Source of the DNA: Elusimicrobiota bacterium | GTDB taxonomy: Bacteria; Elusimicrobiota; Elusimicrobia; UBA1565; UBA9628 | Assembly (NCBI GenBank): GCA_027452025.1 | Contig: DAIDHI010000080.1 | Location: 58-64,057 of the forward strand | Length of the DNA: 64,000 bases | Reading direction: 5' to 3' | Shown here: piece by piece, positions 8,016-54,745 of the stretch | Layout: the number at the start of each line of letters is the position of its first letter | Position numbering within the stretch: the stretch's first letter is position 1 | Notes under the pieces: generated by a model | Database searches by the model: none | Told to the model about the DNA's origin: nothing | What the model saw: the letters and a program-made list of their open reading frames with translations, nothing else | Translations under genes and position numbers: made by a program

Positions 8016-8381
8016 TCAGCCGCGCCGGCGCCGGTGCTGGCGCAAAAGGCAATCGTCGGATACGACGAGGAGGCCCGCTTTGCGGGCGCGCTCTTCGCCG
8101 GCCGGGTGCGTGATCCCGTCTTGCAGCCAAAGCGCCTTCGCCTTGATCTTGATGGCCTCGTCGATCACGGGACCCACGACCTCGGGGTTGCGAAAGACAT
8201 CGACGACGTCGACGGGAAACGGGATCGCCGACAGGCTCGGATAGCACGTCTGCCCCAGCAATTCCTCGTGCCCGGGATTGACGGGAACCACGCGGTAGCC
8301 CCGCTCCTGCAGGTAGGCGGCCACGTAGTGGCCGGGACGGTCGGGCTTGGGCGAGCAGCCCACGACGGCGATGGTCTTCAT
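8016..8381 (-). CDS. CoA-binding domain protein (YccU-like)
   Basis: MKTIAVVGCSPKPDRPGHYVAAYLQERGYRVVPVNP is the typical CoA_binding_2 N-terminus. ATG at 8381 is preferred over the listed 8606. Confidence 0.8.
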   Translation of the reverse strand: MKTIAVVGCSPKPDRPGHYVAAYLQERGYRVVPVNPGHEELLGQTCYPSLSAIPFPVDVVDVFRNPEVVGPVIDEAIKIKAKALWLQDGITHPAGEERARKAGLLVVSDDCLLRQHRRRRG

Positions 8382-8452
8382 CGCCAGAATCCGATCGACG
8401 ACGTCGGCCGGCGCGCCTCCGGGCGTCAACCGGCAGGCGGAGCCGTCGGCCA

Positions 8453-8830
8453 CTAGGCGCGGTACGCTTCGACCTGGACTTCGCCGTCCTCGATCTGGAC
8501 GTGCACGGAGACGACGCGCGAGCAGACCTCGCAATCCTCGTACATCGTCTGCCCGTCGGATTCCGACGTGACATGGACCTCGAAAGTCTCCCCGCAATAG
8601 GGGCACTCGACTTCGGCGTCCTCGTCGATGGCCGGCGTCTCCGGTGCGGCCGTGACCTCGGTCAAAACGGCTTCCAGGACCTTGGCCTGCCGGCTTTCCT
8701 CCCGCTCCTCCGCCGGCTCGGCGGTCCGGGCGGAAGCCGCCTTCCTGCGAACGGCTGGCCTCTTCGCGTGACTCGGCTTGGCTTTCACAAGCAATATATA
8801 CCCCCCACCTTTTTCCCGCGCAAGACCCAA
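8453..8830 (-). CDS. CPXCG-motif cysteine-rich (zinc-ribbon) protein
   Basis: C-terminal ECPYCGETFEV...YEDCEVCSRVVSVHV matches the CPXCG small-protein family. The start is uncertain (TTG 8830, GTG 8788 or later). The N-terminal half is low-complexity. Confidence 0.55.
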   Translation of the reverse strand: MGLAREKGGGYILLVKAKPSHAKRPAVRRKAASARTAEPAEEREESRQAKVLEAVLTEVTAAPETPAIDEDAEVECPYCGETFEVHVTSESDGQTMYEDCEVCSRVVSVHVQIEDGEVQVEAYRA

Positions 8831-8846
8831 AACTCCTGGGACCAGC

Positions 8847-11561
8847 CTATGCGCCTTTGCTCACCTTCTCGAGAGTCAGCCAGCGGTTGGTGCCCGCGAA
8901 CTTTTGGTGCATGCGCGTGCGCGGCTCGCCGTGGGGTGCTCCGAGCTCGGCCACCTGCAAGTCGGCCAGCGCCTCCAGGCCCTTCTTCTTGAACTCGCGC
9001 AGCGAGGCCTCGAGAGCCATGCCCACTGTGCGGAAGGCCAGCAGCGTCGAGAATTGCAGGACGTAGCCGAGACCGCCGAGCTCCTCGTTGGCGATGAGCC
9101 GGCCCTCTTGCTTGGCCTTGCCCCAATGCAGCGAGGGGGAGAGATTGAAGCCCAGCATCTGATCCGGGAAATACTTGTGCACGCCTTGGGCGAAGGCCCT
9201 CGGCCCGTCGATGCCGGTGTCGTTGAACTCGGCCCAAATGACGTCCACGCCCAGAGACGCCGCCTCCAGGGCCCGCGCGATCGCGTGGTCGACGCCCGGC
9301 CCGCGCCCCCCCGGCACGGCGCCGTCCACGGCGTCGGTGCGCGCGATCACGACGAGGTCCGTCTCCGTCGCCTGGGCGGCGGCCTTGACGGCGATGAGCT
9401 TCTCGATCCACTTGTGGGTAGGTACGAGCACCTTGTCTCGCTTGCTGCCGTGATGGGCGATGATGTGGCCGCACGTGCGCTCGGCCGGATCCTGGTCCTC
9501 GAGATGCACGCCGGCGGCGCCCGCGCGGATGAGCTCGCGCGCCAGCGTGAATGTCTGCGTCGGCCCGCCGAAGCCGGCCTCGATGTCGGCGAAGATCGGA
9601 GGCGCGGCCAGGACCTCGCCGTCGCGGTCGTAGAAGTGTCGGTCGCGCGTGCCCTCGATGCCGCGCAGGAGCTCCTGCACCAGCGAGACCATGGAATGTG
9701 AAGGATATATCCCGATGTCTGGATACATGTTGTGGGCGACGGCCAGCTGCCAGCCGCTGGCGTAGATCGCCTCGAAGCCGAGCTCGGTCAGCAGCGACGC
9801 CGTCACGGCGTCGTAGGCCCCCGCCGTGTGGAGGTAGGACTCCGCCGGATCGCTCCGCCGCCGGGCGAAGCGCGCCTTGAGCAGCGCCCTCAGCTTCTGC
9901 GCCGGATGCGTTTTTTCAAGCGGCGCATACATCTTCGCGAACTGCGCCGCGGGATAGGTCCACTTCTTGAAACCTTCGCTGGGAACGGCCGCCGTCTCGC
10001 TGATCATATCTTGGCTCCATTGGCTGGCGCGCTCATAGCGTCGCTCCAGCGCCTCTCTTTGTGCGCGCTCGCCGTTCTGGCGCTGCGCGCGCAGATCCTT
10101 GAAAATCTTCTTCAGCTCCTCGTCGAACCAGCCCGCGACGAGCTCGCGCGTGACGCGCTCTCCCTCCGCGGCCGCGACGGCGTGCCTGATGCGCTGCGCG
10201 ACCATCAGCCGGTAAATCCGGTCCGTCGCCAGATCCTCCATGAAGTTGCCGATGAGGTCGCCGTGCCGGTCGTAGCCTTTGATCATCCGAGCGCCGAGCC
10301 CCGAGAGCACGCCGAATCGATATTCGATCATGGTCCGGATCGCGTCCTTGGTCCCGGCGACGGTGATCGCCCCGATCCCGGTCGGCGCGGGAGTCAGATC
10401 GGGCTTGACCTCGGCGCGCGCGGGAAACGAATGGAGCTGGTTGGGGGCGGGGAATTGGGAAATGGCGGCCTCGTGTTGATCGGGATGCCCGGTCCAAGCC
10501 CCGTCGAAGCCGCAATCCGCTTCATTCTTCTTGTCCGCGGCCAGCCGCTCCATGGCTCGTCCGTTGACCGCGGCATCGCCGCGGTCGGGAAAGAGCGCCG
10601 TCATGCCCCCGATCGCCAGCGCCCCTCGCCGATGGCAGATCTCGACGAGCCGGCGGCGAACATTCTGAAAAAAAGGGATGTCGTGCGGAATCGTGTTACG
10701 GTCCGGCAGGATCCAGCCCGGGTCGGCGAGCTTGAACTCGAGGAGGCTGGCCATATAGTCCCAGCGGCCCAAATTGAGGCCGATCGCGTGTCGGCGAGCC
10801 TCGTAGAGGATCTCCTCGATCTGATAAGCTGCGGGCAGCGACTCGATAAGATACATGATTTTCGTCGTTCCCTCCGGCACGCCGATCGCCGCCTCCATCG
10901 CGGCCAGCGCGTCCGAAAACCACCGCGCCTCGGCGGCCGATTCCACTTTCGGGATGTAGAATCCGAGCTTAGCCTGCAGCCCCGGCGAGTGGACCGCCGC
11001 TTTACGCAGGTCCGCCGTCGGGAAAAAGACCGCGACCATGTCGAAGAGCGAGGCCGACACAATCTCTCCCGGGACGGCTCGCGTTTCGTCGAGATGCAGG
11101 CCGCGGGGGCGGTAATACATAGCCTGAGCGCTCGGCTTGACGCGGGCGGTCTTGCCCGTTTGGGGGTCGGCATAGGCGAGCGTGCCGCGAATGGCCAAGA
11201 CGGTGTTTTCTTGGGCCGTCCGCACGTGCTCCCACTCGGGCGAGATGGAGTCCTCTCCATCCGGCATGCATCCCGGATCGTCGGCGTTGCACATGCCGAC
11301 CAGGATCTTCGCGTTGTCGGCCGGACCGGTGATCTGATTGCGCTGGTCCTTGGCCCAGTCCGGCAGCCGGATCTTCCAGGCCCCGCTCGTCGCCTCCGAT
11401 TCCGGGAGGTAGTCGGGCATCCGTCCTGCGCGCGCGGACGCCAGGGCCGCGCGGCGCTGCTGCAACAGGGCCTGGCGCCTAGGCTCGAAGCGCCTGTGGA
11501 GAGGCAGCAGGAACCCGCGCAAGTCATCCGGAACAATCGCGACGCTTTGTGTCGTTTTCAT
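8847..11561 (-). CDS. bifunctional malate synthase (N-terminal, A-type) / isocitrate lyase (C-terminal) fusion
   Basis: aa 1-~520 align by eye to malate synthase A (RNQITGP, FYIPKVESAAEARWF, GLNLGRWDYMAS, GGMTALFP, DGAWTGHP). aa ~560-904 align to isocitrate lyase (ASGWQLA, ADIEAGFGG, VHLEDQ, TCGH catalytic Cys-His, VVIARTDA, GFNLSPS). It is a single uninterrupted 904-codon frame. Confidence 0.9.
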   Translation of the reverse strand: MKTTQSVAIVPDDLRGFLLPLHRRFEPRRQALLQQRRAALASARAGRMPDYLPESEATSGAWKIRLPDWAKDQRNQITGPADNAKILVGMCNADDPGCMPDGEDSISPEWEHVRTAQENTVLAIRGTLAYADPQTGKTARVKPSAQAMYYRPRGLHLDETRAVPGEIVSASLFDMVAVFFPTADLRKAAVHSPGLQAKLGFYIPKVESAAEARWFSDALAAMEAAIGVPEGTTKIMYLIESLPAAYQIEEILYEARRHAIGLNLGRWDYMASLLEFKLADPGWILPDRNTIPHDIPFFQNVRRRLVEICHRRGALAIGGMTALFPDRGDAAVNGRAMERLAADKKNEADCGFDGAWTGHPDQHEAAISQFPAPNQLHSFPARAEVKPDLTPAPTGIGAITVAGTKDAIRTMIEYRFGVLSGLGARMIKGYDRHGDLIGNFMEDLATDRIYRLMVAQRIRHAVAAAEGERVTRELVAGWFDEELKKIFKDLRAQRQNGERAQREALERRYERASQWSQDMISETAAVPSEGFKKWTYPAAQFAKMYAPLEKTHPAQKLRALLKARFARRRSDPAESYLHTAGAYDAVTASLLTELGFEAIYASGWQLAVAHNMYPDIGIYPSHSMVSLVQELLRGIEGTRDRHFYDRDGEVLAAPPIFADIEAGFGGPTQTFTLARELIRAGAAGVHLEDQDPAERTCGHIIAHHGSKRDKVLVPTHKWIEKLIAVKAAAQATETDLVVIARTDAVDGAVPGGRGPGVDHAIARALEAASLGVDVIWAEFNDTGIDGPRAFAQGVHKYFPDQMLGFNLSPSLHWGKAKQEGRLIANEELGGLGYVLQFSTLLAFRTVGMALEASLREFKKKGLEALADLQVAELGAPHGEPRTRMHQKFAGTNRWLTLEKVSKGA

Positions 11562-25436: not shown

Positions 25437-26876
25437 ATGGTCCGCCCCATGAAAGAAGCCTTCACTTTCCACGATGTCCTCCTTGTCCCGAAGCGCTCCT
25501 CGATCCGCTCGCGCCGCGACGTCGACACCTCCGGGCGTTTCTCCAAGAACATCGCCCTGGAATGCCCCATCGTCTCCGCGAACATGGATACGGTCACGGA
25601 GGCGAAGATGGCCATCGCGCTCGCGCAGGCCGGGGGCCTGGGCGTCATCCACCGTTTTCTGACGATCGAGGAGCAGGTGGCCGAGGTGGCCAAGGTCAAG
25701 CGCGCCGAGAACATCGTCATCGAGAAGCCTTACACGGTGGGGCCCGACAACAGCGTGGATTTCGCCAGGCGCCTGATGGCCGAGCAGGAGGTTGGCGGCC
25801 TGCTGGTCGTCGACGCCGGGCAAAAGCTGCTGGGCATCGTCACCTCGCGCGACCTGCAGTTCCAAAAAGACGACACCCTCCCGATCAAGCGCGTAATGTC
25901 CAAGAAGCTCGTCACCGGCAAGGTCGGCCTGGACCTCGAGGAAGCCCAGGATATCCTGCGCGAGCACAAGATCGAGAAGCTTCCTCTCATCGACAAGGAC
26001 GGCAAGCTCGCCGGCCTCATCACCGCCAAGGACATCCGCAAGAAGAAGCACCATCCGCACGCCTCCAAGGACAAGAAGGGGCGGCTGATGGCCGGCGCCG
26101 CGGTGGGGGTCGTCGGGGATTTCATGGAGCGCTCCTCCGCGCTCATCGCGGCCGGCGCCGACGTCCTGGTCGTCGACGTGGCGCACGGCCATGCCGACCA
26201 CGTCATCGACGTCGTCAGGAAGATCAAGCGCAAGTGGCCGGGCGCGGAACTGGTGGCCGGAAACGTGGCGACTTACGAGGGCGCCAAGGACCTGGCCGGC
26301 GCCGGCGCCGACGGCGTCAAGGTAGGCGTCGGGCCGGGCTCGATCTGCAGCACCCGCATCGTCTCCGGCTCGGGGCTGCCGCAGCTCTCCGCCGTCATGG
26401 AGTGCGCCAAGATCACCCGCGAGCGCGGCATCCCGGTCTGCGCCGACGGCGGCATCCGGGACTCCGGAGACATCGCCAAGGCCCTGGCCGCGGGAGCTTC
26501 CTGCGTCATGCTCGGCTCTCTTTTTGCCGGCACCGAGGAAAGCCCGGGCTGGACCGTGGTGCGCGACGGAGCACGCTACAAGGTCTACCGGGGCATGGCC
26601 TCCCTGGGAGCGACGTTGTCGCGCAAGCGCAAGGAGCGCTCCGACGACGAGCTGGATCCCATCGAAGTGGCCGAGGTCGTGCCCGAGGGGGTGGAGTCCA
26701 TGGCGCCCTTCAAGGGTCCGGTGGCCGACGTGCTCTACCAGCTCCAGGGCGGCCTTCGCTCCGGCATGAGCTACTCCGGGGCGCGCACGCTCAAGGAGTT
26801 CTGGGACAACTCGGAGTTCGTCCGGATCACCGCCGCCGCTTGGGCGGAGTCGCGGCCGCATCATCTCGACCGCTGA
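25437..26876 (+). CDS. guaB: IMP dehydrogenase
   Basis: [10 protein letters not shown], a CBS pair, [14 protein letters not shown] catalytic Cys loop, [21 protein letters not shown]. An alternative start at ATG 25449 sits just downstream of ACTATAAT. Confidence 0.92.
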
Positions 26877-28197
26877 AGAGCGGAGAAAGCTCCGGAAACG
26901 CTTCCAGCAGCTGCTCGCCGCGCAAGCGGTCCAGCCTCGCCGTCATCGAGCGCAACGCCTCGAGCTCTCCGCGGCAATCGTCGCGCGAATTCAAAAAGGC
27001 AAGCGCCGACCGAAACGGCGCCGCCGCGGCCTCACCCAAGGGCTCGAGGCGGTCGACGTAGGCCCGGTAAGCATCGATGGCGCGCTCCAGCAGCTCCGGG
27101 CCGAGGACGTGCGCCCGGTAATAGCGCGGCCAGCGCAGGGCTTTGATGCGCATGCCGTCCGCGGCCAGGTAGCCTTTTTCAACCCAGTCGCGGTGAAAAT
27201 TGGGCAGGTGGAGCGCGTTAAAGACGCTCAGCGTCGAGGCCACGGCGAAATCCACCCGGGGGCACTCACGCATGAGGCGCTTGCGGTTGTCCACTATGCC
27301 GTCCCACTTCTGCCCTTTGCGCAGGTACTGCGCCCGCGCGCCCATGGCATCGAGGCTGGCGACAACGCGCACTTCGCGGAACTTCGTCCAATAGCGCAAG
27401 GCGTCCCGGGAGCCCAGGCGCAGCGTGGAAAAGTTGGTCGTGTAGAACAAGGCGACGTCGAAGCGCCTGCGCGACGCCAGGTAGTCGAGGACGTCGTAAT
27501 GCTCGCGGGCCAGAAGAGGCTCTCCCGCGCCGCCGAATTGGATCGTGTGAGCCTCGTCGAGATGCGGCTTGAGGACCTCCAAGAAGCGCGCGCCCCGCGC
27601 CCCGGGCTCGATGAGCCTGGGCCGGGGGACCTTGCCGAGACGCTCGCCCGCCATGGCCGCCAGGTCGGGATACCAGCCCGAGCTGAGCTCGGGGTTGCAG
27701 GTCCGGCAGCTGTAGTTGCAAAGGTTGGAAAAGGTCAGGTGCAGGTAGCGCAGACGGGGATCGCGGAGGCCGCCGTCCTTCCTTGTCTGCGCGACCGCGT
27801 CGAAAAAACCGGAGAACCGGTCGTTGGCCCAATTGCGCATGCTGTACCAGCCGAAGCTCTCATGGGCCTGGCAGCGCTCGCATTGCGCAAGCCTCTTGCC
27901 CGCCAGCATGTCCCGGCGCGCCTTCTTGAGGGTTGGCTGGTTGAGAAAGCCGTCCGCGCGCAGGCCCTCCAAGCGCCCCAGGGACTTGCCTCGCGCGTCC
28001 CAGCGGCAGCACGGCGCCAGCCCCCCGTCGGCGAGGTTGCGCACGGCGAGCCAGGGCAGTATGCAGAAGCCCGGCGCTCGTTTAAGCGCGGCGTCGGGGC
28101 TCAGGCCTTCTTCAGGAGCTTGTTCTTGCAGAGTTGCTCGACCAGTGACCCAATCTCCGCCTCGGCCGCGGCGCCAGACACCTCGAAGAGACCGCAA
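26827..28197 (-). CDS. radical SAM protein with N-terminal Cys-rich (twitch-like) domain
   Basis: N-terminal FCILPW...PCC...CERC block, then the radical SAM motif CNYSCRTC (Cx3Cx2C). The listed TTG start (28197) overlaps the PqqD gene by 97 nt. A CTG at 28104 would overlap the PqqD stop as CTGA. Confidence 0.75.
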   Translation of the reverse strand: MRSLRGVWRRGRGGDWVTGRATLQEQAPEEGLSPDAALKRAPGFCILPWLAVRNLADGGLAPCCRWDARGKSLGRLEGLRADGFLNQPTLKKARRDMLAGKRLAQCERCQAHESFGWYSMRNWANDRFSGFFDAVAQTRKDGGLRDPRLRYLHLTFSNLCNYSCRTCNPELSSGWYPDLAAMAGERLGKVPRPRLIEPGARGARFLEVLKPHLDEAHTIQFGGAGEPLLAREHYDVLDYLASRRRFDVALFYTTNFSTLRLGSRDALRYWTKFREVRVVASLDAMGARAQYLRKGQKWDGIVDNRKRLMRECPRVDFAVASTLSVFNALHLPNFHRDWVEKGYLAADGMRIKALRWPRYYRAHVLGPELLERAIDAYRAYVDRLEPLGEAAAAPFRSALAFLNSRDDCRGELEALRSMTARLDRLRGEQLLEAFPELSPLFSGRDDAAATPPKRRR

Positions 28198-28373
28198 AGC
28201 TCGTCGCGAGCCTCGGCCAGCGACAGGCCGCGGGTGAGGGAGTCCCAGATGGCCGCGCCCGTCTCATTGAGCGAGAAATAAGCGCTCGTGTCGGTGTCGA
28301 GGATCACCGTCTCTTTATCGACCTTCCTGAAGGCCACGTTATCAGGAATCTGGAACTTGTCGTTGAGCGTCAT
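28101..28373 (-). CDS. PqqD-family peptide-binding protein (RiPP recognition element-like)
   Basis: 90 aa. VAFRKVDKETVILDTDTSAYFSLNETGAAIWDSL...EIGSLVEQLCKNKLL follows the PqqD pattern. Confidence 0.75.
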   Translation of the reverse strand: MTLNDKFQIPDNVAFRKVDKETVILDTDTSAYFSLNETGAAIWDSLTRGLSLAEARDELCGLFEVSGAAAEAEIGSLVEQLCKNKLLKKA

Positions 28374-28385: not shown

Positions 28386-29597
28386 CTACCTAAATATGGA
28401 TAACCGCAGGTAGGCCAGCGCGGCCGCCTCCCAGCGATAACGCGGCGAGCGCGCCAAGGCCGCCGCCCCGAGCCGCCGGCGCAAAGGGGCGTCTCGAAGC
28501 AGGCGCTCCAGCCCGGCGGCGAGCGCCGCCGGGTCCTTGGGCGCGACGAGCAGGCCCGTGCGCCCGTCCTGGACTACGTGGGCCAGCCCGCCGACGCGCG
28601 TCGCCAGGACGGGCTTCGCGCAGGCCATGGCTTCGACGGCGGCCATGCCGAATATCTCGAAGCGAGACGGCAGGACGAGGAAAAGGCACCGGCGCATCAA
28701 GGCGCGCAAGGCGGGGCGCTCGACGAGGCCTAAAAACCGCACGCGCCGGCCAAGGCCCAGCTTGGCGGCCAGCGACTGGAAATAGCCGTCGAAATGATCC
28801 GGGCCGCAGAGCACGAGCGTAACCCCGGGGAATCGCGCGCACACATCGCGCCAGGCGAGCAGCAGCAGGTCGATGCCTTTGTAGTAGTGAAGCCGCGCCG
28901 CGCAAAGGATGAAGCGCGAGCCCGCAGGCAGCGGAAGCGGCGCCGGGCGGCCCCGAAACTCGCCGGGGTCGAAGCCCGACGGCACGACGGCGACGCGGCG
29001 CGAGGCTCCGTCCGTGCGGCGGATGTCCTCGGCCACCGAGGGCGAGATCACGGTGACCCAGGCCGCGCGCCGAAACGCTTCGTCGAGAAGCCGCCAGCGC
29101 CGGCCGCGCTGAGGACGCTCGCCGGTGACCCGGTCCCAGGAATGAAAGGTCAGGCCTACGGGCACGCGGCGCGCCGAGCAGGCCCGCCAAAGCGCCGTGA
29201 GCTGGTTGTCTCGGAAGCAGCGCATGACGTGAAGATGGATCATGTCGGGCCGGAAGTCCGCGAGGGCCGAGGACAGCTGCGCGAAGATGCGCCGGCCGCG
29301 CCGGCGACGCTGCGAGCCGTTGCCCCCGAGGCGCCAGAAGCGGCCCCAGGGCCTGTCCTCGAAAAACGGCAGCCGCGCGCCGGGCGCCAACTGCGCCGCG
29401 GCGGCGACCGGGCAGCCGAGCTTGGCATAACCCGCGGCGAGGCCTGCGATGGTGGACTCGGCCGTCGGATCGCCGGCGAGGAACTCGGCGCAGATGAAAA
29501 CGCGGGGCCGGGCTAGGGGAGGACGGCCAGGGCGATGCCGGCCTGCGTGGCCAAATAGGTCAACGCGCCGTGGACCACCAGCACCGGCTTGAGCCAA
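28386..29597 (-). CDS. glycosyltransferase family 4 (GT-B, group 1)
   Basis: The C-terminal half carries the GT4 signature (LVLPSRFEIFGMAAVEAMACAKPVLATRVGGLAHVVQDGRTGLLV). The start is unresolved. High-GC3 coding in this frame begins only at ~29516, where there is no ATG/GTG/TTG, and the nearest canonical start is TTG 29597, inside the small ORF. Confidence 0.7.
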   Translation of the reverse strand: MAQAGAGGPRRVDLFGHAGRHRPGRPPLARPRVFICAEFLAGDPTAESTIAGLAAGYAKLGCPVAAAAQLAPGARLPFFEDRPWGRFWRLGGNGSQRRRRGRRIFAQLSSALADFRPDMIHLHVMRCFRDNQLTALWRACSARRVPVGLTFHSWDRVTGERPQRGRRWRLLDEAFRRAAWVTVISPSVAEDIRRTDGASRRVAVVPSGFDPGEFRGRPAPLPLPAGSRFILCAARLHYYKGIDLLLLAWRDVCARFPGVTLVLCGPDHFDGYFQSLAAKLGLGRRVRFLGLVERPALRALMRRCLFLVLPSRFEIFGMAAVEAMACAKPVLATRVGGLAHVVQDGRTGLLVAPKDPAALAAGLERLLRDAPLRRRLGAAALARSPRYRWEAAALAYLRLSIFR

Positions 29598-29635
29598 GGG
29601 CGCCTCTTGCGCTTCTTGTCCTTTCCCTTGGCCAT
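29513..29635 (-). CDS. 40-aa small ORF (candidate precursor peptide or membrane anchor): MAKGKDKKRKRRPWLKPVLVVHGALTYLATQAGIALAVLP
   Basis: Not in the supplied ORF track. It has an ATG start and a TAG stop, and 37 of 40 codons end in G/C by hand count, against roughly half in the overlapping GT4 frame. It lies between the GT2 and GT4 genes of the PqqD/radical SAM operon. The SD (GAGG) abuts the ATG, which is a weak context. Confidence 0.5.
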   Translation of the reverse strand: MAKGKDKKRKRRPWLKPVLVVHGALTYLATQAGIALAVLP

Positions 29636-29653
29636 CCTCGGAATTAAAGCAGG

Positions 29654-30622
29654 TCACGGGGCCCCTGTCAACGCCAGGACGCCTCGCAGAGCGGGAGAGG
29701 CGAAATAAGGGTGCGCCGCGGCGCGCGAAAGCCACTCGCGCGCCCGCGGCCCGTCGCCGCTTTTGAGGCAGAGACCGGCCATCGCCGCGTAGAACTGCGC
29801 CGGCGCGGGATGTCCCTTGACGGCCTCGGCGTAGCGCCTGATGGCCAGGTCGAAGCGTCCGGCGGCGGCGTGCCGGGCCGCCAGCCACTCCGCGCGGTCC
29901 CAAGGGTGGCTGTCGGGCAGCGGAAAGCGCGCGAGACGAGAGCCCCATTTCTCGAAGAACTTCAAGCGCGCCGCCCCGGAGTCCGGATTGCGCCGCAGAT
30001 GGTCGTGGATCACGGCGCTGCCGCCGTGATAGAGGACGGCGAGCCCCTTCAAGCGAGCCCTCAGGCAATAGTCGAGGTCCTCGAACTGGCAAGGGAAGAA
30101 CCTCTCGTCGAACGGACCGACGCGCGAAAACAGCGAGCGGCGCATGAGCCAGCAGGCGCCGATCACGCTTTCGCAGCGGCGGGTGTAGTCGCGCTGGCCC
30201 AGGTCGCGCTCTTCCTCCCCGGCGTTGCGGCTCCACGGAGAGCCCATCTCCGCGGCGTTGATCGTGCCGTCCGGCCGCGCCACCTTGCAGCCGACGATGA
30301 CGGCCTTACGGTCGCCCTCGGCGGCCCGGAGCATCCCTTCCAGCCAGCCAGCCGTGGCGCGGGCATCGTCATCGAGCAGGACCACCCAATCAGAGCGGAG
30401 TCGCCCGCGGACGGCGTTGACGGCGCCGGAAAATCCCAGGTTGCGGCGGTGGCGAACCGCCTCGACGTCGGCGCCTCGCAGCCACGACGCCGTTCCGTCG
30501 CGGGAGGCGTTGTCGACGATGATCAGCCGGTGCGGGACGGCCCGCGTGTGGCGTCGGACCGATTGCACGCACGACGCCAGAGCCCGTCTGGCGTCGTGCG
30601 TGACCACGACGATGTCGATCAT
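29654..30622 (-). CDS. glycosyltransferase family 2 with C-terminal helical-repeat tail
   Basis: MIDIVVVTHDA...LIIVDNASRDGT...VVLLDDDA (DxD) GT-A pattern. GAGGAG SD overlaps the upstream stop. Confidence 0.8.
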   Translation of the reverse strand: MIDIVVVTHDARRALASCVQSVRRHTRAVPHRLIIVDNASRDGTASWLRGADVEAVRHRRNLGFSGAVNAVRGRLRSDWVVLLDDDARATAGWLEGMLRAAEGDRKAVIVGCKVARPDGTINAAEMGSPWSRNAGEEERDLGQRDYTRRCESVIGACWLMRRSLFSRVGPFDERFFPCQFEDLDYCLRARLKGLAVLYHGGSAVIHDHLRRNPDSGAARLKFFEKWGSRLARFPLPDSHPWDRAEWLAARHAAAGRFDLAIRRYAEAVKGHPAPAQFYAAMAGLCLKSGDGPRAREWLSRAAAHPYFASPALRGVLALTGAP

Positions 30623-30629
30623 CGGCTCC

Positions 30630-32612
30630 TCAGCTGGCCGCGGCGGAAAACGCGGCGAAATCGCTCATGCGAGGCATCTTGCGCACATAGGCGACGGCCT
30701 GCATCCGGTCGAGCGCGAGGCGCTGGGCGACCGGCAGGCTCGACATGGGCATGGCCAGGAAAAGGAAAGAGTCGTCCTCTTCGAAGACCCAGCGCCGCTT
30801 GACGAGGTCTGCGAGCGCCCGGCGCACGCGCTTGGCCGAGCAGCGGGGAAACTTTTCTTGGCAGGCCCGCAGGACGCCGGGGAAGGGACGGATCTCGTCG
30901 CAGGCTTCCAGGATCGCGGCCTCAAGGCCCGTGACCAGGCGCTGCCGGTGCTCGATGCGCCGGGAAAGCCCGAGCGGACGCGAGTCGTAGACCTCCATGA
31001 AGCCGAGGCCCTTGCGATAGGCGAAATAGTTCTTCTGGTAGATCCGCTGCCAATGGTCGAATATCGGGCGTATCACGGGCTCGGCGTAGTCAGCCGGATC
31101 CGGCTGCCCTTCGACGCTCGGCGCCTCGAAGAAGTAGGCGATCTCGCCGCGCTTGAAGCGCGGCTCTGGGTAGAGGAAACGGTATTCCTCCATAGGCACG
31201 GGCTCCCGCAGCCCGAAGCGCCGCCAGTCGAAGTAGTAGGGGCTGAAGCGGTCGACCCGGATGACGTGGGCGTAAAACGGCGGCTGCAGGTGCGTCGCCG
31301 CCGCCATCGTATCGGCGATCCTGCGGTACTCGTCGGGCGACTCGCCGGGAAAGCCCCACAGCATCCCCCACGTCAGCTGAATGCGGCCCGCGCAGGCCTT
31401 GAGCGCCTGGAGGTTTTGGATGGTCTTGACGCCCTTGCGCATCAGCTTGAGGACGGGCGTGCTGAAGCTCTCGATGCCCGCTTGGATCGCCAGGATTCCG
31501 GCCTCGTGAAGAGTCTCGATCTGGGCCGCCGTCAAGTTCGCCTTGGTCTCGAAAAAAACGTGCCACTCGAGCTTGTGCTTCTTGCGAAACTCCGCCAGGA
31601 CGGCGGTGAGGCTGGTGAGGTGCTCCACGCTCAGGATGTTGTCGCAGGCATGCAGCCGGTAGGTCTTGTATCTCTCGAAGAGGAAGGCGATCTCGGCGGC
31701 GACGGCCTGCGCCGGCTTGGCGCGGAACGTCATGCCGTCGCGGTTGAGCCCGCAGAACGTGCAGTGCTGCTTCTGCCCCCACCAGCATCCGCGGGAGGCC
31801 TCGAAAGTCACCTGCGGCGAGACCCACGATGCCATGCCCGAGGCCTCAAGCTCACGGAAATAGTCGTCGTGGTCGGGAACTGGCACGCGGCGCATGTCGG
31901 CCAGGCGCGTCTCAGCGGGGTTTCGGGAGACGACGCCCTCGCCTGTCCGCGCCGAGACATGCGGCATCCCCTTCGGGAGCCGGCCGGAGCGGATGTGCCG
32001 CAGCAGCGCCGGAAACGCCTCCTCGGCCTCGCCTTCGACGACGTAGTCGACCCACTCGCAGCCCTTGAGCGTCGCCACCCCCATCTCGCCGTCGCAATTG
32101 GCTCCGCCGAGGACGATCGTCGTTTTCGGATGCTTGCGCTTGATGAGGCGGGCCAGCGCCAGAGAGGCGATGTGATTGTGGAACATGCTGCTGAAGCCGA
32201 CGACGTCGTAGCGCCCCCAGGGGACGTCGGCCAGGCAATGCTCGAGGAAAGCCGGCACGTCGTCGCGCACGAGCCTGCGCAGGCGCTCGCGCGGAAATTT
32301 TCCAAGGTTCTTGGCGAACACGGGCTCGGCGAGGACGTCCTCGAGCTCGTCAGGCAGCTCCTTGAGGCCGCCCGGGCCGAAAAGATGATAGGCGAAGGCC
32401 CACTGCGCGAAATGCCCGTAGGGAGCGAGCGCGAAGGCGTCGAGAAGGTCGTCGGCCCACCGGCCGAAGCGCAAGTTGAGGTAGTGGACGTCGCAAGGCA
32501 TCCCTTCACGCGCGAGGACGCTTTTGAGCACGCCGACTCCGAGCGGAGGCCGGTCGGGCGCGGCCCAAGGCATGACGACCAAGGCGACGCGGAGGCTGCG
32601 CGGTTTGGACAT
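30630..32612 (-). CDS. B12-binding-domain radical SAM enzyme (class B; resembles RiPP C-methyltransferase-type)
   Basis: N-terminal LRVALVVMPWAAPDRPPLGVGVLKSVLAREGMPCDVHYLNLRF (cobalamin-binding-like Rossmann region), then SRGCWWGQKQHCTFCGLN (Cx7Cx2C cluster motif). 660 aa from ATG 32612. The listed 840-aa ORF has a junk N-terminus. Confidence 0.85.
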   Translation of the reverse strand: MSKPRSLRVALVVMPWAAPDRPPLGVGVLKSVLAREGMPCDVHYLNLRFGRWADDLLDAFALAPYGHFAQWAFAYHLFGPGGLKELPDELEDVLAEPVFAKNLGKFPRERLRRLVRDDVPAFLEHCLADVPWGRYDVVGFSSMFHNHIASLALARLIKRKHPKTTIVLGGANCDGEMGVATLKGCEWVDYVVEGEAEEAFPALLRHIRSGRLPKGMPHVSARTGEGVVSRNPAETRLADMRRVPVPDHDDYFRELEASGMASWVSPQVTFEASRGCWWGQKQHCTFCGLNRDGMTFRAKPAQAVAAEIAFLFERYKTYRLHACDNILSVEHLTSLTAVLAEFRKKHKLEWHVFFETKANLTAAQIETLHEAGILAIQAGIESFSTPVLKLMRKGVKTIQNLQALKACAGRIQLTWGMLWGFPGESPDEYRRIADTMAAATHLQPPFYAHVIRVDRFSPYYFDWRRFGLREPVPMEEYRFLYPEPRFKRGEIAYFFEAPSVEGQPDPADYAEPVIRPIFDHWQRIYQKNYFAYRKGLGFMEVYDSRPLGLSRRIEHRQRLVTGLEAAILEACDEIRPFPGVLRACQEKFPRCSAKRVRRALADLVKRRWVFEEDDSFLFLAMPMSSLPVAQRLALDRMQAVAYVRKMPRMSDFAAFSAAAS

Positions 32613-32657: not shown

Positions 32658-33209
32658 ATGGAGATCGTCGAGGAAGCCAGCGATATTTTCAGCTTTCAGC
32701 TCCTCTCGCCGAGCTATTGCCAAAAACTCGTCCGGTGGGCTTCGCGGGACCTCCGGTGGAATCGCGGGCGCGTGTACGCCGGTCCGCGGCGCCTGCAGGA
32801 CGCCGCCTCCCGCCGCTGCCTGGAGCGCACGGTCGCCGGCCTGCCCCCTCCCTGGAACGAGCTGGCGCAGGCTTGCCGCGAAAAGGCGCTTTCCGCGGCG
32901 CGGCTGTGCTGGCGCGAGCGCTTCAGGCGGCTGACCGGAGCGCGTCTGGTGCGCTACGACCCCGGCGGCTATTTCAAGATGCATTGCGACTTCCTCCCCA
33001 GCCTGCGGGTCAAGCCGCGCTTCCTGAGCCTGGTCTGCTATCTCAACGAAGACTTCTCGGGCGGGCGCACGGCCTTCCCGCGGCAAGCCCACGACATCGT
33101 CCCAAAGACCGGGAAAGCCGTCCTCTTCCCGTCCTCGATCACGCACCCTCACGAAGCCCAGGCCGTCCGAGAGGGGACCCGCTACGTGATCGTGGCCTGG
33201 GTCGAATGA
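32658..33209 (+). CDS. 2OG-Fe(II) oxygenase (prolyl-4-hydroxylase-like)
   Basis: YFKMHCD (HxD) ... ITHPHEA (distal His) ... RYVIVAWV, a double-stranded beta-helix pattern. 183 aa. Confidence 0.75.
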   Translation: MEIVEEASDIFSFQLLSPSYCQKLVRWASRDLRWNRGRVYAGPRRLQDAASRRCLERTVAGLPPPWNELAQACREKALSAARLCWRERFRRLTGARLVRYDPGGYFKMHCDFLPSLRVKPRFLSLVCYLNEDFSGGRTAFPRQAHDIVPKTGKAVLFPSSITHPHEAQAVREGTRYVIVAWVE

Positions 33210-33964
33210 GGGGCCGCCGCCCCGCGGTCTGCGTCGTCATCCCGACCTTCGACCGCATCGAGTTCCTCAAGCCCTGCCTGGAGTCCGTCTACGCGCAGAC
33301 GTTTCGCGGCTTCGAAATCGTCGTCGTGGACGACGGCTCGACCGACGGCACGGCGCGCTGGCTTGCCTCGCGGCGGCTGCCGCGCCTGACCTTGCTGCGC
33401 AACGCGCGCAACCGCGGCCCGGCCAGAGCCCGCAACCGCGCCCTCGCCGCGGCTTCGGCGCAGCTCTTGGCGTTCCTCGATTCGGATGACCTCTGGCGGC
33501 CCGGCTATCTGGACGCGATGACGCGCGCCTTTCGCGATCCGGGCATCGTGGCCGCGTTCTCGGGCTACGACCGCATCGACGAGCGCGGACGCCTGCGCCG
33601 CGGCGCCGGGCGCCCGCGCCGCAACCTGGCCCTGGAGGCGGTCGCGGGCCTCGAGACCCCGCCGCCGCCCTCGACGATGGTCATCCGAAGGCAGGCCTGC
33701 CGAGAGCTCGGCGGCTTCGACGAGCGCTTCGGACGGGTAAACGAGGACATCGACTTCCTGCTGCGCGCGGGCCTGCGCTACGGACCCGCCTCCTTCCGCC
33801 TCCAGCCGCGCAAGCTTGTCTTGCGCCGGCGTCATGGCGGCCAGATCAGCCGCCGCCTGCAAATCGAGCCTCTCGACACCGCCTGGCTCAACCTCAAGCA
33901 TCGCTGGTGGCTCGAGCTCCTGGCCGAAGGCGCTGGGCCCGGGCCCAGCGCGCTTAGGCCCTAA
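33206..33964 (+). CDS. glycosyltransferase family 2
   Basis: VCVVIPTFDRIEFLKPCLESVYAQTFRGFEIVVVDDGSTDGT ... FLDSDD GT-A motifs. The ATG overlaps the upstream stop (ATGA). Confidence 0.82.
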   Translation: MRGRRPAVCVVIPTFDRIEFLKPCLESVYAQTFRGFEIVVVDDGSTDGTARWLASRRLPRLTLLRNARNRGPARARNRALAAASAQLLAFLDSDDLWRPGYLDAMTRAFRDPGIVAAFSGYDRIDERGRLRRGAGRPRRNLALEAVAGLETPPPPSTMVIRRQACRELGGFDERFGRVNEDIDFLLRAGLRYGPASFRLQPRKLVLRRRHGGQISRRLQIEPLDTAWLNLKHRWWLELLAEGAGPGPSALRP

Positions 33965-34005: not shown

Positions 34006-35943
34006 ATGCTCAGAATATTGGCAGCTCTCCTGCTCGCCTGCCCGGCCGCCGCCGGCCAACTCCAGCAGGCCCCGGGGCCAGTCGAAGTCCCCTCTTTGCC
34101 CGCCGCGCAGGCCGCCGTTTTCCCGCGGCTCGACGCCCCGGCCGCGGCCGCGTCGCCCCAGGCGACGGCTTCCCAGGCGCCTCAAGCGCCCGCCGCGGCC
34201 GAAGCGGCGGAGCCGGCGGCCGCTCCGGCGCCGGCAGCCTTCGAGGCCCGGCCCTCCTTCGCGCGCCGCCTGCTCTATTCCAACTTCGCCGCGCGGCGCA
34301 TGGCGGCGCGCCTGCTCGACCGAAACCTTGGCTCCGCCCTCGGCGACCGGCTGTCATCGGAGCCGGCGCTGGCCCCTCACGCGCGGTTTTGGAGCGACCA
34401 ATCCGTGCGCATCGAGCTCGTCCCGGCCAAGGCCCTCGGTGCCTCGACGCGCGCGGCGAGCTACTCCCACAACCGGCGAGTCGTCCGGATCAACCGCGAC
34501 CGGGCCGCGCGCTGGCTCTGCGAGATCGCCGCCCAGGGAGCCCCTTTCGCGCAAGGCATCGACGTCCTGACCGAGAAACTCTTGCCGCTGCTGGCCCACG
34601 AGTTGCGCCACGGAATCACCAAGACCCAATGGCAGCGCGCCCTGGGCCATCGCCTCCCGATCGAGGCGCGCGAAAACGAGGTCCTCTCCTTCGCCGACGA
34701 GCTGCGCGTCTGGCAGGGGCTCAAGGATCGGCCGTCGGCGAGCGCCGAGCTCAGCCACCTCGACGAGCATCACCGGATCGTCGCCTCCTACTGGGCGCGG
34801 GACGGCTGGGCCGGTCTGGACTCGATCATCGACCAGGTGTATCGCCAGCCCGCCTTGCTCGGAGACCGGCAGGCCGTGCACGACGCCGCGCTCGCGGCCG
34901 CGGTCCGGACGCTCGGCGGCTCCGAGATCTCCGGCCTCCCCCAGACGCTCGCCGCGGCCTCCGGCGACGAGTCTTGGAGCCGCTTTCAGGAAGGCTTCCG
35001 CCCGCTCTATGAGGAGCAAAAGCGGGCCGTGGCGCCGGCGCCCGAGGAGACGCATCCGGCCTCGGCCATCGTCGCCGCGCTCAAGGCGACGGCGCTCAGG
35101 CGCCTGGCCTTCCGGCCTTGGGTCGTTCATCGCCTTCTGCCGCGCCTGCTCGGCGGCGCCGTGGTCAAGACCATGACCGCGGAGCTCGCGCGTCTCGCCT
35201 CGACCGGAGAGGAGGCCGCGTATCTGGCGCGCCAAGGTCCGGCGATCAAGCTCGACGGCGCTCCGCGCCTCGACGCGCACGACATGGCGCTCTACGACCG
35301 GGGCGCGCGCGACACGATCTATCTCAACCGCGACCGGCTGGGCGTCTGGCTGGCCTACCGTCTCATCGAGGGAGACTCGCCCAGGCAAGCCGCGCGCACG
35401 GTCGGCCTGAAGTTCCTTCCCACTCTCGCACACGAAGTGCGTCACGCGATCACCGACGGCCAATGGCTCGAGCGTTTGGGGTTCACCTTCATGGGCGGCA
35501 ACATCGAGACGGAGATGATCTCCCACGCGCAGACCGTCCGGGTCATCGGCGAGGTCAGGGCCAGGCACGAAAAGGAGCTTTCCTCGCGCCCGATCCCCGG
35601 ACTCGACGACCACCACGACGAGCTGCTCGAGCTTTGGCGGCAGGGCGGCTGGAGCGCCCTGGGCGCCTACGTGCGCCGCGAATACGAGACGCGCGTCTCC
35701 ATCCTCCGGACGGAGCGCGGCGAGCTCCACAACGTCATGAGCGCCATCGGCCTCGTCACCGCCGTGGGCATGTCCCAGGAAAAGGACGCCGCCGCGGCGA
35801 TGCGCGCCGTCTACGGCGACTTCCGCGCGTTTTTCTCCCAGCTCGACGACGCGGCCTCCTGGGAGGCCTTCCGCGGCCGCTTTTCCGGCGTCTACGCGCG
35901 CCAACTGCGCGCCGTCAGCCCCCGCCTTCCTTCCGCCCGCTGA
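34006..35943 (+). CDS. secreted protein with two tandem HExxH modules (hypothetical metallopeptidase-like)
   Basis: Signal peptide MLRILAALLLACPAAAG and an Ala/Pro-rich linker, followed by two homologous ~250-aa halves. Each half has ...NRDR...WL...LLAHELRHGI / LAHEVRHAI. Confidence 0.6.
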   Translation: MLRILAALLLACPAAAGQLQQAPGPVEVPSLPAAQAAVFPRLDAPAAAASPQATASQAPQAPAAAEAAEPAAAPAPAAFEARPSFARRLLYSNFAARRMAARLLDRNLGSALGDRLSSEPALAPHARFWSDQSVRIELVPAKALGASTRAASYSHNRRVVRINRDRAARWLCEIAAQGAPFAQGIDVLTEKLLPLLAHELRHGITKTQWQRALGHRLPIEARENEVLSFADELRVWQGLKDRPSASAELSHLDEHHRIVASYWARDGWAGLDSIIDQVYRQPALLGDRQAVHDAALAAAVRTLGGSEISGLPQTLAAASGDESWSRFQEGFRPLYEEQKRAVAPAPEETHPASAIVAALKATALRRLAFRPWVVHRLLPRLLGGAVVKTMTAELARLASTGEEAAYLARQGPAIKLDGAPRLDAHDMALYDRGARDTIYLNRDRLGVWLAYRLIEGDSPRQAARTVGLKFLPTLAHEVRHAITDGQWLERLGFTFMGGNIETEMISHAQTVRVIGEVRARHEKELSSRPIPGLDDHHDELLELWRQGGWSALGAYVRREYETRVSILRTERGELHNVMSAIGLVTAVGMSQEKDAAAAMRAVYGDFRAFFSQLDDAASWEAFRGRFSGVYARQLRAVSPRLPSAR

Positions 35944-52378: not shown

Positions 52379-53319
52379 CTCCCGCTTCTTTATTAAAGGT
52401 GGAGGACTCGCTCTCCCGCGTTCGCGCGGGCCTGGAGAGCCGCGCCCTGCGCATCGAGGGCCGGGTCGGCCGGGAGCTGGCGGCCTTCGTGGCCCGCCCG
52501 GGAAAGATGCTGCGCTCGCGCTTCTGCCTGCTTTTGGGCGGCGCGCTGGGCGTGCCGCGGGACAAGGCCGAGGCGGCCGCCCGGGCGCTGGAGCTGGTGC
52601 ACAACGCCAGCCTCCTCCATGACGACTGCATCGACGAGGCCACGCTTCGCCGCAGCCGGCCCACGCCCAACGCCCTTTTCAACATCCCGACGGCGCTGCT
52701 CATCGGCGATCTGGCTTTTTCCCAAGGCCTCGAGGAGGCCGTGGACGTTTCGCCGAGCGCGGCCAAGCTCCTGGCCGCGGCGGTGCGCGAGATGTCGGTC
52801 GGGGAGCTTCAGGAGGAGTTCCTCAAGGGCGACGCCGACTTGACCGTCGACGCCTACATCGGCGTCTGCTCGCGCAAGACCGGCGCGCTCTTCGAGTGGG
52901 CCGGGGCGGTGCTCTCGGAGCTGAGCCCCTTTCCCCACGAGCAGGCGGACCCGCCGCGGCTGGCCTGCGCGGCCGGCATCCTCCTTCAGGTCGTCGACGA
53001 CATCCACGACTACACCCTGGGCGAGCGGGTGTCGGGCAAGGACGAGGGCCAGGACGTCAAGAACCGGCGGCTGACGCTGCCCTGCCTCTACGCCCTGGCC
53101 GACGCGCGGGCCCGCGAGGAGTTTCTCAAGCTTTGGCGAGGCGGCGACGCGACGGGAGTGGGACGGTTCCTCGTCGAGGGCGGGTTCGTCGCGAAGGCGC
53201 GCGGGAAGGGGCGGGAGCTGGCCGACTCCATGACGGCGATGGCGCGCGCCCTGCCCTGCCGCGCCGAGGCCTCCCAATTGGCCTTCTTCATCGACCTGCT
53301 GGTCAAGAGGGAATTTTGA
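52375..53319 (+). CDS. polyprenyl diphosphate synthase (trans-isoprenyl, FARM/SARM type)
   Basis: First Asp-rich motif LLHDDCIDE and second motif VVDDIHD. 314 aa. The ATG overlaps the regulator stop (ATGA). Confidence 0.88.
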   Translation: MTPASLLKVEDSLSRVRAGLESRALRIEGRVGRELAAFVARPGKMLRSRFCLLLGGALGVPRDKAEAAARALELVHNASLLHDDCIDEATLRRSRPTPNALFNIPTALLIGDLAFSQGLEEAVDVSPSAAKLLAAAVREMSVGELQEEFLKGDADLTVDAYIGVCSRKTGALFEWAGAVLSELSPFPHEQADPPRLACAAGILLQVVDDIHDYTLGERVSGKDEGQDVKNRRLTLPCLYALADARAREEFLKLWRGGDATGVGRFLVEGGFVAKARGKGRELADSMTAMARALPCRAEASQLAFFIDLLVKREF

Positions 53320-53320
53320 G

Positions 53321-53761
53321 ATGTCTTACGAGGCCCTGGTCAAGAAAGCGTGGGCGAGCGGGACGTTCAAGCTCGACGAGGCCGAGGCCGGAAAGGCCGA
53401 TCCGTCGGCGGCCGTCAGTCGCGAGGCCGTGCGCCGGGAGATGGAACAGATCGCGGAGAGGGAGACCTGGGACGCCGCAAGCTGCTTCTCCGCCCATAAA
53501 GAGGGAATCATGAAACTAGCTCCGTTCGTGAAGTTCCGTGAAGAGAAGTTCGGCGCCGTGCTCTTTGAGACGCGCTCGGAGAAGGTCTATACGCTCAGCC
53601 CGAGCGGCGCCGCCGTCGTGCGGGAAGTGGTCGCCGGGGCCACTTCCAGCGACCTGCCGGCCAGGCTCAAGCAGAAGTTCGAGGACCCCACCGGGAAGAT
53701 GGAGCAGGAAGCGGCAAGCTTCCTGGCCCAGCTCAAGGACAAGGGCCTCGTCGTCGAGTAG
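53321..53761 (+). CDS. PqqD-family peptide chaperone (RRE) with 63-aa N-terminal extension
   Basis: The C-terminal 83 aa (MKLAPFVKFREEKFGAVLFETRSEKVYTLSPSGAAVVREV...FLAQLKDKGLVV) show the PqqD/MftB pattern. The N-terminal 63 aa have high GC3, so they are probably translated. There is an internal alternative start at 53510. Both ATGs are preceded by AAGAGGGAAT. Confidence 0.7.
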   Translation: MSYEALVKKAWASGTFKLDEAEAGKADPSAAVSREAVRREMEQIAERETWDAASCFSAHKEGIMKLAPFVKFREEKFGAVLFETRSEKVYTLSPSGAAVVREVVAGATSSDLPARLKQKFEDPTGKMEQEAASFLAQLKDKGLVVE

Positions 53762-53767
53762 GGCGCC

Positions 53768-54739: not shown

Positions 54740-54745
54740 GCGGAC

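Follow-up and report, generated by a model that had tools for sequence, protein, structure and literature searches.

A conserved 40-codon open reading frame in an Elusimicrobiota radical SAM and glycosyltransferase operon is a probable RiPP-type precursor gene

The small ORF and its operon

A short open reading frame (ORF) was examined in a 64,000-nucleotide (nt) stretch of DNA from an Elusimicrobiota bacterium (GenBank assembly GCA_027452025.1, contig DAIDHI010000080.1, positions 58 to 64,057 of the forward strand), referred to here as the window. The ORF lies in a minus-strand operon that encodes, in order, a B12-binding radical S-adenosylmethionine (SAM) enzyme, a family 2 glycosyltransferase (GT2) with tetratricopeptide repeats (TPR), the small ORF itself, a family 4 glycosyltransferase (GT4), a PqqD-family protein and a radical SAM enzyme with an N-terminal twitch domain. 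Genes for a 2-oxoglutarate (2OG)-Fe(II) oxygenase and a second GT2 are divergent from it. The ORF probably encodes the substrate of a gene cluster for a peptide that is ribosomally synthesized and modified post-translationally (RiPP). The features of the locus are listed below; RRE stands for RiPP recognition element and GC3 for the G+C content of third codon positions.

26827..28197, minus strand: radical SAM enzyme with an N-terminal twitch domain, maximal ORF (NF033640, 304 bits against a cut-off of 170; orthologs in L018 and L019)
28101..28373, minus strand: discrete PqqD-family RRE protein of 90 amino acids (aa) (PF05402, E = 1.5e-14)
28386..29507, minus strand: GT4 coding region with no canonical start at its 5′ end (Pfam Glycos_transf_1 and Glyco_transf_4; homology from P-R-V-F-I-C onward)
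29513..29635, minus strand: small ORF of 40 codons plus TAG, proposed RiPP-type precursor (GC3, homologs, entry P0001)
29654..30622, minus strand: GT2 with a C-terminal TPR region (Pfam scan)
30630..32612, minus strand: B12-binding radical SAM enzyme of the RiPP maturation C-methyltransferase type, start at 32612 or 32582 (TIGR03975 over its full length, 584 bits against a cut-off of 282)
32658..33209, plus strand: 2OG-Fe(II) oxygenase of the prolyl/lysyl-hydroxylase type, divergent (PF13640; orthologs in L009, L018 and L019)
33206..33964, plus strand: second GT2 (Pfam scan; partial matches in L016, L018 and L019)

Read from the ATG at 29635 to the TAG at 29513 on the minus strand, the ORF translates as MAKGKDKKRKRRPWLKPVLVVHGALTYLATQAGIALAVLP. 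In this frame 37 of the 40 codons end in G or C, compared with 19 of 42 in the frame that continues into the GT4 gene over the same stretch; the G+C content of the window is 68%. A sliding GC3 profile placed the switch of the high-GC3 coding frame between approximately 29540 and 29510, and a run of four C residues (29516..29519) is followed by the TAG. These results bear out an earlier prediction made from the letters of the window alone, which had reported the same bias towards G/C-ending codons, a frame switch at about 29513 to 29516 and the C run. The original prediction had also described the ORF as unlisted. The ORF is real and as described, but it is not unannotated everywhere, as the peptide is catalogued as a 40-aa NCBI-derived protein (P0001) on a contig of 64,502 bp. 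None of the Pfam and NCBIfam models covers the peptide. Three parts of it were distinguished:

29579..29596, minus strand: W14-L-K-P17-V-L19, an instance of the leader motif [Y/W]xxPx[L/V/I/F/A] (nine-sequence alignment; motif as defined in PMC13381572)
29540..29599, minus strand: central conserved block from P13 to A32, the putative leader or recognition region (alignments; weak, sub-threshold matches to lasso-precursor models)
29516..29539, minus strand: variable C-terminal tail from G33 to P40 (GIALAVLP), ending in Pro-TAG, the putative core or part of it (the tail differs among relatives)

A family of conserved peptides

A word-index search using the peptide alone returned only the self-match. 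Homologs were reached via contigs that carry orthologs of the GT4, on which an ORF of 41–43 codons lies just 5′ of the GT4 gene, and then by profile searches, which gave P0068, P0069, P0070, P0071, P0073 and P0074. A nine-sequence alignment of the peptide proved too divergent for a metagenome scan, and a five-sequence alignment worked. The family consists of the window peptide and 10 metagenome relatives, and these approximately 11 members, 40–47 aa in length, are all that were found in collections that run to billions of proteins. The closest relatives, recovered in the metagenome scan, are the peptides of L018 (MASDKDKKKKKRPYVKPLLIIHGSLTFLATQAGTALATLP) and L019 (ending …SYQKPLLIVHGSLTFLATQAGTALAVLP), with 68–71% identity to the window peptide, while the peptide shared by L009 and L010, MANEKDAGAPKRKPYVKPLLILHGSLTFLATQAEIASAFIP, is 57% identical. 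A hidden Markov model (HMM) of the family found one copy only in the window and in each related locus (E = 1e-20 to 1e-27).

The family shares a near-invariant block, (R/K)P-[Y/W]-x-K-P-L-L-x-x-H-G-S-L-T-F-L-A-T-Q-A. It is preceded by 12–20 variable, Lys/Asp-rich residues and followed by eight variable residues that mostly end in Pro. In the window peptide the block occupies residues 13–32, and in the alignments the N-terminal 12 and last eight residues vary. The tails of the relatives are GTALATLP, GTALAVLP, EIASAFIP, EIAAMATP, EIAAMAVP, EVASAVIP and TNASALIP. Residues K16, P17, L19 and H22 are invariant in the nine-sequence alignment and are also present in L018 and L019, hence in 11 of the 11 members. 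The motif in the relatives reads Y-(V/I/Q)-K-P-L-L, the Trp being unique to the window member and replaced by Tyr in all 10 relatives. At position 27 the window peptide has Tyr and seven of the 10 relatives have Phe.

In nine comparable pairs, synonymous codon differences equalled or exceeded non-synonymous ones (for example 9:4 for L018 and L019 and 13:7 for L009 and L013), with the window and L019 (6:8) as the sole exception. This pattern points to selection on the reading frame of the peptide. The ORF has its own stop codon in all nine loci for which DNA was available (TAG in seven, TAA in one and TGA in one). A Pro codon directly precedes the TAG in six of the seven ORFs that end in it (window, L009, L011, L012, L016, L018 and L019). 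Counting all stop codons, the Pro-stop ending is found in the window and in 6/8 of the other loci with DNA, the closest relatives included. TAG is normally the rarest stop codon in G+C-rich genomes, and a stop preceded by Pro is a slow-termination context.

The original prediction had treated the ORF as an independent coding gene and had allowed that it might be separate, fused or absent at homologous loci. It proved to be conserved in 10 other sequences and separate in each of the nine loci, and was never fused to the GT4. Judged from these comparisons, the small ORF is a real, conserved and separately encoded peptide gene.

Several related sequences were seen in the course of the searches. 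A tandem pair of full-length small ORFs is present on the contig of P0005, and likewise on that of P0071. In L011 (705..757) and L012 (411..463) the stretch from the peptide stop to the GT4 start contains a 15-codon mini-ORF, MARRPGVKPATASLP and MARKPRVKPATASIP, respectively, apparently what an internal deletion has left of a second, tandem precursor copy. Matches at 4218..4295 in L020 and 4485..4592 in L021 (…SYLKPLLVIHNS…; …SYLKPLLVIHNSRGYCGCL…) were not accepted as members, as their scores were weak and they had no clear start and no partner enzymes on their contigs. They have the Y-x-K-P-L-L-x-x-H motif and could be distant relatives or chance matches. P0072, a 738-aa repeat protein, was rejected as a false positive.

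Partner genes in the window and related loci

A TIGR03975-type B12-binding radical SAM enzyme is encoded in every locus with enough flanking sequence (window, L009/L010, the P0005 contig, L014, L016, L018 and L019). The closest solved structure to the window enzyme is TokK, and its orthologs in L009, L014, L016, L018 and L019 are 43–53% identical. The GT4 gene lies directly 3′ of the peptide gene in the window, L009/L010, the P0005 contig, L016, L018 and L019. It does not in L014, where the peptide gene adjoins genes for the B12-binding radical SAM enzyme, PqqD and ABC proteins and no GT4 is present in the 8-kb contig.

The PqqD gene was found in L009/L010, the P0005 contig, L014 and L016 as well as in the window, in agreement with the functional tie between the small ORF and the PqqD-family protein that had been proposed at the outset. 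The closest solved structures to the window PqqD are the lasso RREs TbiB1 (5v1u, E = 1.7e-7) and TfuB1 (6jx3), and its best NCBIfam matches are lasso PqqD chaperones, under their cut-offs.

Genes for the 2OG oxygenase occur in the window, L009, L018 and L019 and, in two copies, in the P0005 contig. Among solved structures the window oxygenase comes nearest to the procollagen lysyl hydroxylase LH3 and to prolyl 4-hydroxylase, with weak similarity (E ~1e-4). The radical SAM enzyme with the N-terminal twitch domain is found in the window, L018 and L019. As its family match sets in at residue 43, the window enzyme probably has its true start near 28070. Most loci include GT2 and further radical SAM enzymes, and other loci add SPASM radical SAM enzymes, a sulfatase, a carbamoyltransferase, an amine oxidase and ABC-2 transporters.

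Three further observations were made around these genes. The maximal ORF of the window twitch-domain enzyme shares 97 nt (28101..28197, minus strand) with the 3′ end of the PqqD gene. In L018, just 5′ of the peptide gene, a B12-binding ORF (8374..8964) and a radical SAM ORF (8921..9919) overlap in different frames and together (8374..9919) look like a second B12-binding radical SAM gene that is split or frameshifted. Beside the window cluster, 34006..35943 on the plus strand encodes a possible peptidase of 645 aa, whose N-terminus resembles a signal peptide and which contains HExxH twice (LAHELRHGITK and LAHEVRHAITD). Neither Pfam nor NCBIfam gave a match to this protein, and the related loci have no counterpart of it.

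The GT4 gene has lost its start codon

The original prediction had noted that the GT4 frame contains no ATG, GTG or TTG from 29516 up to a TTG at 29597. This was confirmed, and the gap in fact extends from that TTG to another at 29390. In a map of about 60 genes based on frame signal, the GT4 gene was the only one with its nearest canonical starts more than 30 codons away in both directions from the onset of the coding signal (33 upstream and 36 downstream). Its orthologs P0005, P0006 and P0007 (49–54% identity, 372–375 aa) begin with M/V/L-R-(V/I)-L at the position of P-R-V-F-I-C in the window protein and have no N-terminal extension. A search of the genome contigs with the GT4 as query found only distant GT4s (≤36% identity) and no syntenic locus. 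Three sites bear on the start:

29505..29512, minus strand: remnant 5-nt spacer CCCGG and codon CCC (29507..29505) at the position of the relatives' GT4 start (DNA alignment)
29388..29390, minus strand: TTG, the apparent start of the 334-aa GT4 gene call P0004, which drops the first 42 conserved residues (NCBI contig gene call)
29595..29608, minus strand: within the peptide ORF, AAGAGG (29603..29608), a 5-nt gap and a TTG that is in frame with the GT4 (29595..29597) (sequence inspection)

A canonical start codon is present at the aligned position in each of the seven comparable loci (GTG in L009, L011, L012, L018 and L019, TTG in L013 and ATG in L016). The relatives have a spacer of 13–63 nt between the peptide stop and the GT4 gene and the window one of 5 nt; against L009/L013 the window lacks 8 nt, and against L018 it lacks 30 nt. 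The loss of the start is thus attributable to lineage-specific shortening of this spacer, and from the alignment it is a small deletion in the lineage of the window contig that removed it. The first 42 GT4 codons have a GC3 of 0.8–1.0 and keep conserved residues. As these codons look coding, the 334-aa call is probably wrong at its N-terminus, or else the gene was inactivated recently. For annotation, the lesson is that this shortened call follows from the loss of a start through a small deletion.

How the GT4 might now be made was considered. That it is no longer active, through recent inactivation, or that the deletion is an assembly artefact, is a serious possibility that falls a little short of even odds. 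Translation from the out-of-frame TTG at 29597 within the peptide gene is a more tentative proposal. This TTG, the sole canonical upstream start, is preceded by a Shine-Dalgarno sequence and would add a 30-residue N-terminal extension. It is created by a CCT Pro codon followed by the window-specific TGG Trp codon; the relatives have TAC or TAT (Tyr) at the latter position and so have no TTG there. Non-canonical initiation or re-initiation is doubtful. An ATC at 29495..29493 was judged unlikely as a non-canonical start, as it has no Shine-Dalgarno sequence and would clip the first beta-strand. A –1 slip at the end of the peptide ORF, considered below, has only a slender chance of being the route.

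A probable RiPP-type precursor and its alternatives

We put at roughly three in four the probability that the small ORF is the gene for the precursor peptide, or substrate, on which a RiPP-type biosynthetic gene cluster acts. The locus combines a short coding ORF, an RRE-type motif, a PqqD gene in the cluster, and a peptide with a conserved region and a variable putative core. The motif [Y/W]xxPx[L/V/I/F/A] is what discrete lasso-type RREs recognize in a leader, and a non-lasso family, the linear polyphosphorylated peptides (LPP), reuses it, the choice of W or Y tuning RRE specificity (PMC13381572). Besides binding the leader, discrete RREs act as scaffolds for the modifying enzymes (PMC7470986). 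The W-x-K-P sequence, singled out at the start as a meaningful feature, fits this motif. The window peptide also gave a weak match to the lasso-precursor model NF033534 (E = 1e-4, 21.9 bits against a cut-off of 30; 14–16 bits for relatives), and for 5/11 family peptides the matches to lasso-precursor models were confined to the leader part and below cut-off throughout.

In the proposed scheme, the discrete PqqD protein would bind the W14-L-K-P-V-L19 strand, as lasso RREs bind YxxPxL leaders, and would present the C-terminal part of the peptide to the radical SAM enzymes. The B12-binding enzyme would C-methylate it, other radical chemistry is possible, and the twitch-domain enzyme may act too. 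The 2OG oxygenase would hydroxylate a Pro or Lys of the peptide, and the GT4 and GT2 would add sugars to it, the hydroxyl so formed or Thr/Ser being the probable sites. The outcome would be a short glycopeptide with extensive tailoring, neither a lasso peptide nor pyrroloquinoline quinone (PQQ), which in related loci may be exported by the ABC-2 transporters.

Several points weigh against a precursor role. No PqqD gene was found by tblastn or HMM within 10 kb of the peptide gene in the closest relatives, L018 and L019, and no leader peptidase was identified in any locus. The boundary between leader and core is uncertain because the conserved block reaches almost to the C-terminus, and the scores against lasso-precursor models are under the curated cut-offs. 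With its basic N-terminus and hydrophobic C-terminal half, the peptide could also be read as a small protein associated with membranes, and the enzyme set (GT2, GT4, carbamoyltransferase, sulfatase and ABC-2 transporter) overlaps that of polysaccharide loci. Everything beyond a conserved peptide that adjoins these enzymes we infer from sequence.

A small membrane-associated subunit, translated separately and left unmodified, that recruits, anchors or regulates a soluble GT4 is an unlikely identity for the peptide. The basic N-terminus and a 24-residue uncharged tail (maximum Kyte-Doolittle 19-residue mean of 1.54 for the window peptide) would suit such a partner, and the peptide gene is immediately 5′ of the GT4 gene in every locus but L014. 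However, the hydrophobicity of all 10 members scored (1.15–1.54) is under the usual threshold of 1.6, and the tails of P0071, P0073, P0074 and the L009 group include charged residues. In L014 the peptide gene keeps company with the B12-binding radical SAM, PqqD and ABC genes without a GT4 in the contig, and a membrane role would leave the RRE-type motif and the PqqD partner unexplained. The original prediction had drawn a parallel with PqqA, citing W-L-K-P-V-L beside W-K-K-P of PqqA, a Tyr 13 residues after the Trp and the adjoining PqqD-family gene. A PqqA-like precursor of a PQQ-type cross-linked cofactor is nevertheless close to negligible in likelihood. Glu-Tyr chemistry of the PqqA kind is unsupported because Tyr27 is Phe in most relatives and the motif Trp occurs in the window alone, and no Glu is conserved and hence no Glu-x-x-x-Tyr pair. 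There is no PqqB, PqqC or PqqE equivalog, the radical SAM enzymes matching TIGR03975 and NF033640 and not PqqE, and the window PqqD resembles lasso B1 proteins.

Two readings that join the ORF to the GT4 had also been put forward. One takes it as the N-terminal transmembrane anchor of the GT4, split by a 1-nt error in the C run (four assembled, five real). A single extra C at 29516..29519 does read in frame as ...AVLP-LARPRVFICAEF..., and the GT4 otherwise has no start codon, yet this is extremely improbable. The architecture is seen in no homolog: the GT4 orthologs start at the P-R-V-F position, in 9/9 loci the peptide gene stands apart and ends in a stop codon of its own, mostly after Pro, and the difference from the relatives is a deletion of 8–30 nt and not a 1-nt indel. 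The other long genes of the window (hemL, hemB, guaB and both radical SAM genes) are intact, so the assembly is not indel-ridden. The other reading is a programmed –1 frameshift at C-CCC-UAG, first proposed on CUC-CCC-UAG, in which peptidyl-tRNA-Pro would re-pair one base back at the slow Pro-stop and a low-frequency fusion of peptide and GT4 would offset the lost start. The sequence is compatible with it, since CCC would allow perfect re-pairing and the GT4 is read in the –1 frame, and slow termination, known for a C-terminal Pro before a stop, would favour it. The coding-like first 42 GT4 codons also lead one to expect some translation of that region. The proposal found no support in the homologs and is rated very unlikely. 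The arrangement is absent from all relatives, the GT4 having a start codon of its own in 7/7 loci. The RNA of 29430..29525 is not unusually structured (z = 0.60, with 142 of 200 shuffles folding at least as well) and there is no canonical X-XXY-YYZ heptamer. An N-terminal fusion of a precursor to an enzyme also has no evident rationale.

A candidate promoter for the peptide gene

A pattern search with shuffled controls revealed one candidate promoter for the peptide gene.

29643..29671, minus strand: within the 3′ end of the GT2-TPR gene, a sigma-70-like promoter that reads TTGACA-17 nt-TTTAAT and has a TG immediately ahead of its –10 box (pattern search and shuffles)

This is the only site within one mismatch of TTGACA-N17-TATAAT on either strand of the window, and none was found in 100 shuffles. 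The end of the –10 box is 7 nt from the ATG of the peptide gene, which implies a leaderless or near-leaderless transcript; on this spacing the transcript is probably leaderless. In L009, L011 and L012, TGCTATACT is found 6 nt before the ATG. A stricter consensus promoter scanner called no site at the peptide gene, owing to the T in position 2 of the –10 box. As such sites are not called by it, the promoter remains a candidate. Several window genes, for example those at 37540 (minus strand), 59760 (minus strand), 25437 (plus strand) and 32658 (plus strand), have a TATAAT-like hexamer that ends 6–10 nt before the start (6–7 nt in several of them) and no Shine-Dalgarno sequence, a pattern which suggests that leaderless mRNAs may be frequent in the source organism.

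A second RiPP-like locus in the window

A second, unrelated RiPP-like locus with a polyprenyl synthetase was found at 52396..58598 on the plus strand. It includes a PqqD-domain protein (53321..53761), a UbiA/MenA-like prenyltransferase (54746..55633), three radical SAM/SPASM proteins (53768..54739, 55630..56592 and 56756..57700) and a 40-aa peptide, MNDQKKTVTVVKAEPKLVWQTPSLEEVSDRVMAQPYIRFT (56613..56735), which has a WxxPxL motif and no NCBIfam match. A second W-x-x-P peptide near 56613, paired with a PqqD gene, had been predicted, and both were found. The combination of peptide, radical SAM and prenylation genes is unusual.

Comparison with known peptide systems

Literature searches on the gene set and on the context of TIGR03975 found no description of the peptide or of the gene set in the library searched. 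Uncharacterized RiPP families are not rare. The locus is best seen as a RiPP system that depends on an RRE and combines a lasso-type leader with a different enzyme set, in which an orphan 40-codon ORF becomes the anchor of a recurring gene set (precursor, B12-binding radical SAM C-methyltransferase and glycosyltransferase). If this is right, the family is a candidate for a new class of short C-methylated, hydroxylated and glycosylated ribosomal peptides and would be the second case, after LPP, of a lasso leader/RRE module reused outside lasso biosynthesis. A bolder composite account, in which an undescribed RiPP class (lasso-type leader, B1-like RRE, B12-binding radical SAM enzyme, collagen-type hydroxylase and GT4/GT2) is combined with a start-less GT4 made by a –1 slip at C-CCC-UAG as a low-abundance precursor-enzyme fusion, is very unlikely as a whole.

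Among the closest parallels are lasso precursors served by B1-type RREs (TbiA/TbiB1 and TfuA/TfuB1). Shared features are the [Y/W]xxPx[L/V/I/F/A] leader with a Gly a few residues on and, as partner, a free-standing PqqD-family protein some 90 aa long, whose nearest solved relatives here are TbiB1/TfuB1, and the matches of the family peptides to NCBIfam lasso models are confined to the leader region. Between the motif and the conserved Thr there is one residue more here than in lasso leaders, and the putative core is only 8–9 residues. A lasso core starts with G, A, S or C and has Asp or Glu at positions 7–9. The tail that follows T-Q in the window peptide, AGIALAVLP, has no acidic residue, and there is no Asp/Glu macrolactam acceptor in the window, L018 or L019. 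No lasso cyclase (asparagine-synthetase-like) or B2 peptidase was found in the window operon, its flanks or the gene tables of the related loci. With no cyclase or B2 protein, no acidic acceptor in the tail and a sub-threshold NF033534 score, the lasso peptide itself was rejected as the product.

The LPP system (PMC13381572) is similar in having a lasso-like YxxPx(V/L) leader with a discrete RRE in a cyclase-less pathway to a tailored peptide that stays linear, a conserved N-terminal region with a variable C-terminus, and a functionally meaningful choice of W or Y in the motif. It differs from the present loci, which encode a B12-binding radical SAM methyltransferase, GT4/GT2, a 2OG oxygenase and other radical SAM enzymes on high-GC metagenome contigs. 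The PqqA/PqqD/PqqE system likewise pairs a small W-x-K-P peptide with a PqqD-family binder and radical SAM partners, but the present family has no conserved Glu/Tyr pair and no PqqB, PqqC or PqqE, and the Trp is Tyr in all relatives.

The tailoring enzymes recall two other systems. In proteusins such as polytheonamide (PoyB/C and PoyI), a TIGR03975-class B12-binding radical SAM enzyme and a 2OG-Fe(II) hydroxylase act on a hydrophobic ribosomal peptide; TIGR03975 we take to be linked to the PoyB/C-type C-methyltransferases of polytheonamide. Unlike proteusins, the present system has an RRE-type leader, glycosyltransferases and a far shorter peptide, and no NCBIfam match to an NHLP or Nif11-type leader was found in the 10 family peptides scanned. 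Collagen-type hydroxylation and O-glycosylation (LH3, mimivirus L230 and prolyl 4-hydroxylases) is similar in that the oxygenase here is nearest to peptidyl-lysine and peptidyl-proline hydroxylases and is encoded beside glycosyltransferases, although the similarity is weak and the context is a bacterial RiPP-like operon. This arrangement suggests a comparable logic, in which the peptide would be hydroxylated and then glycosylated.

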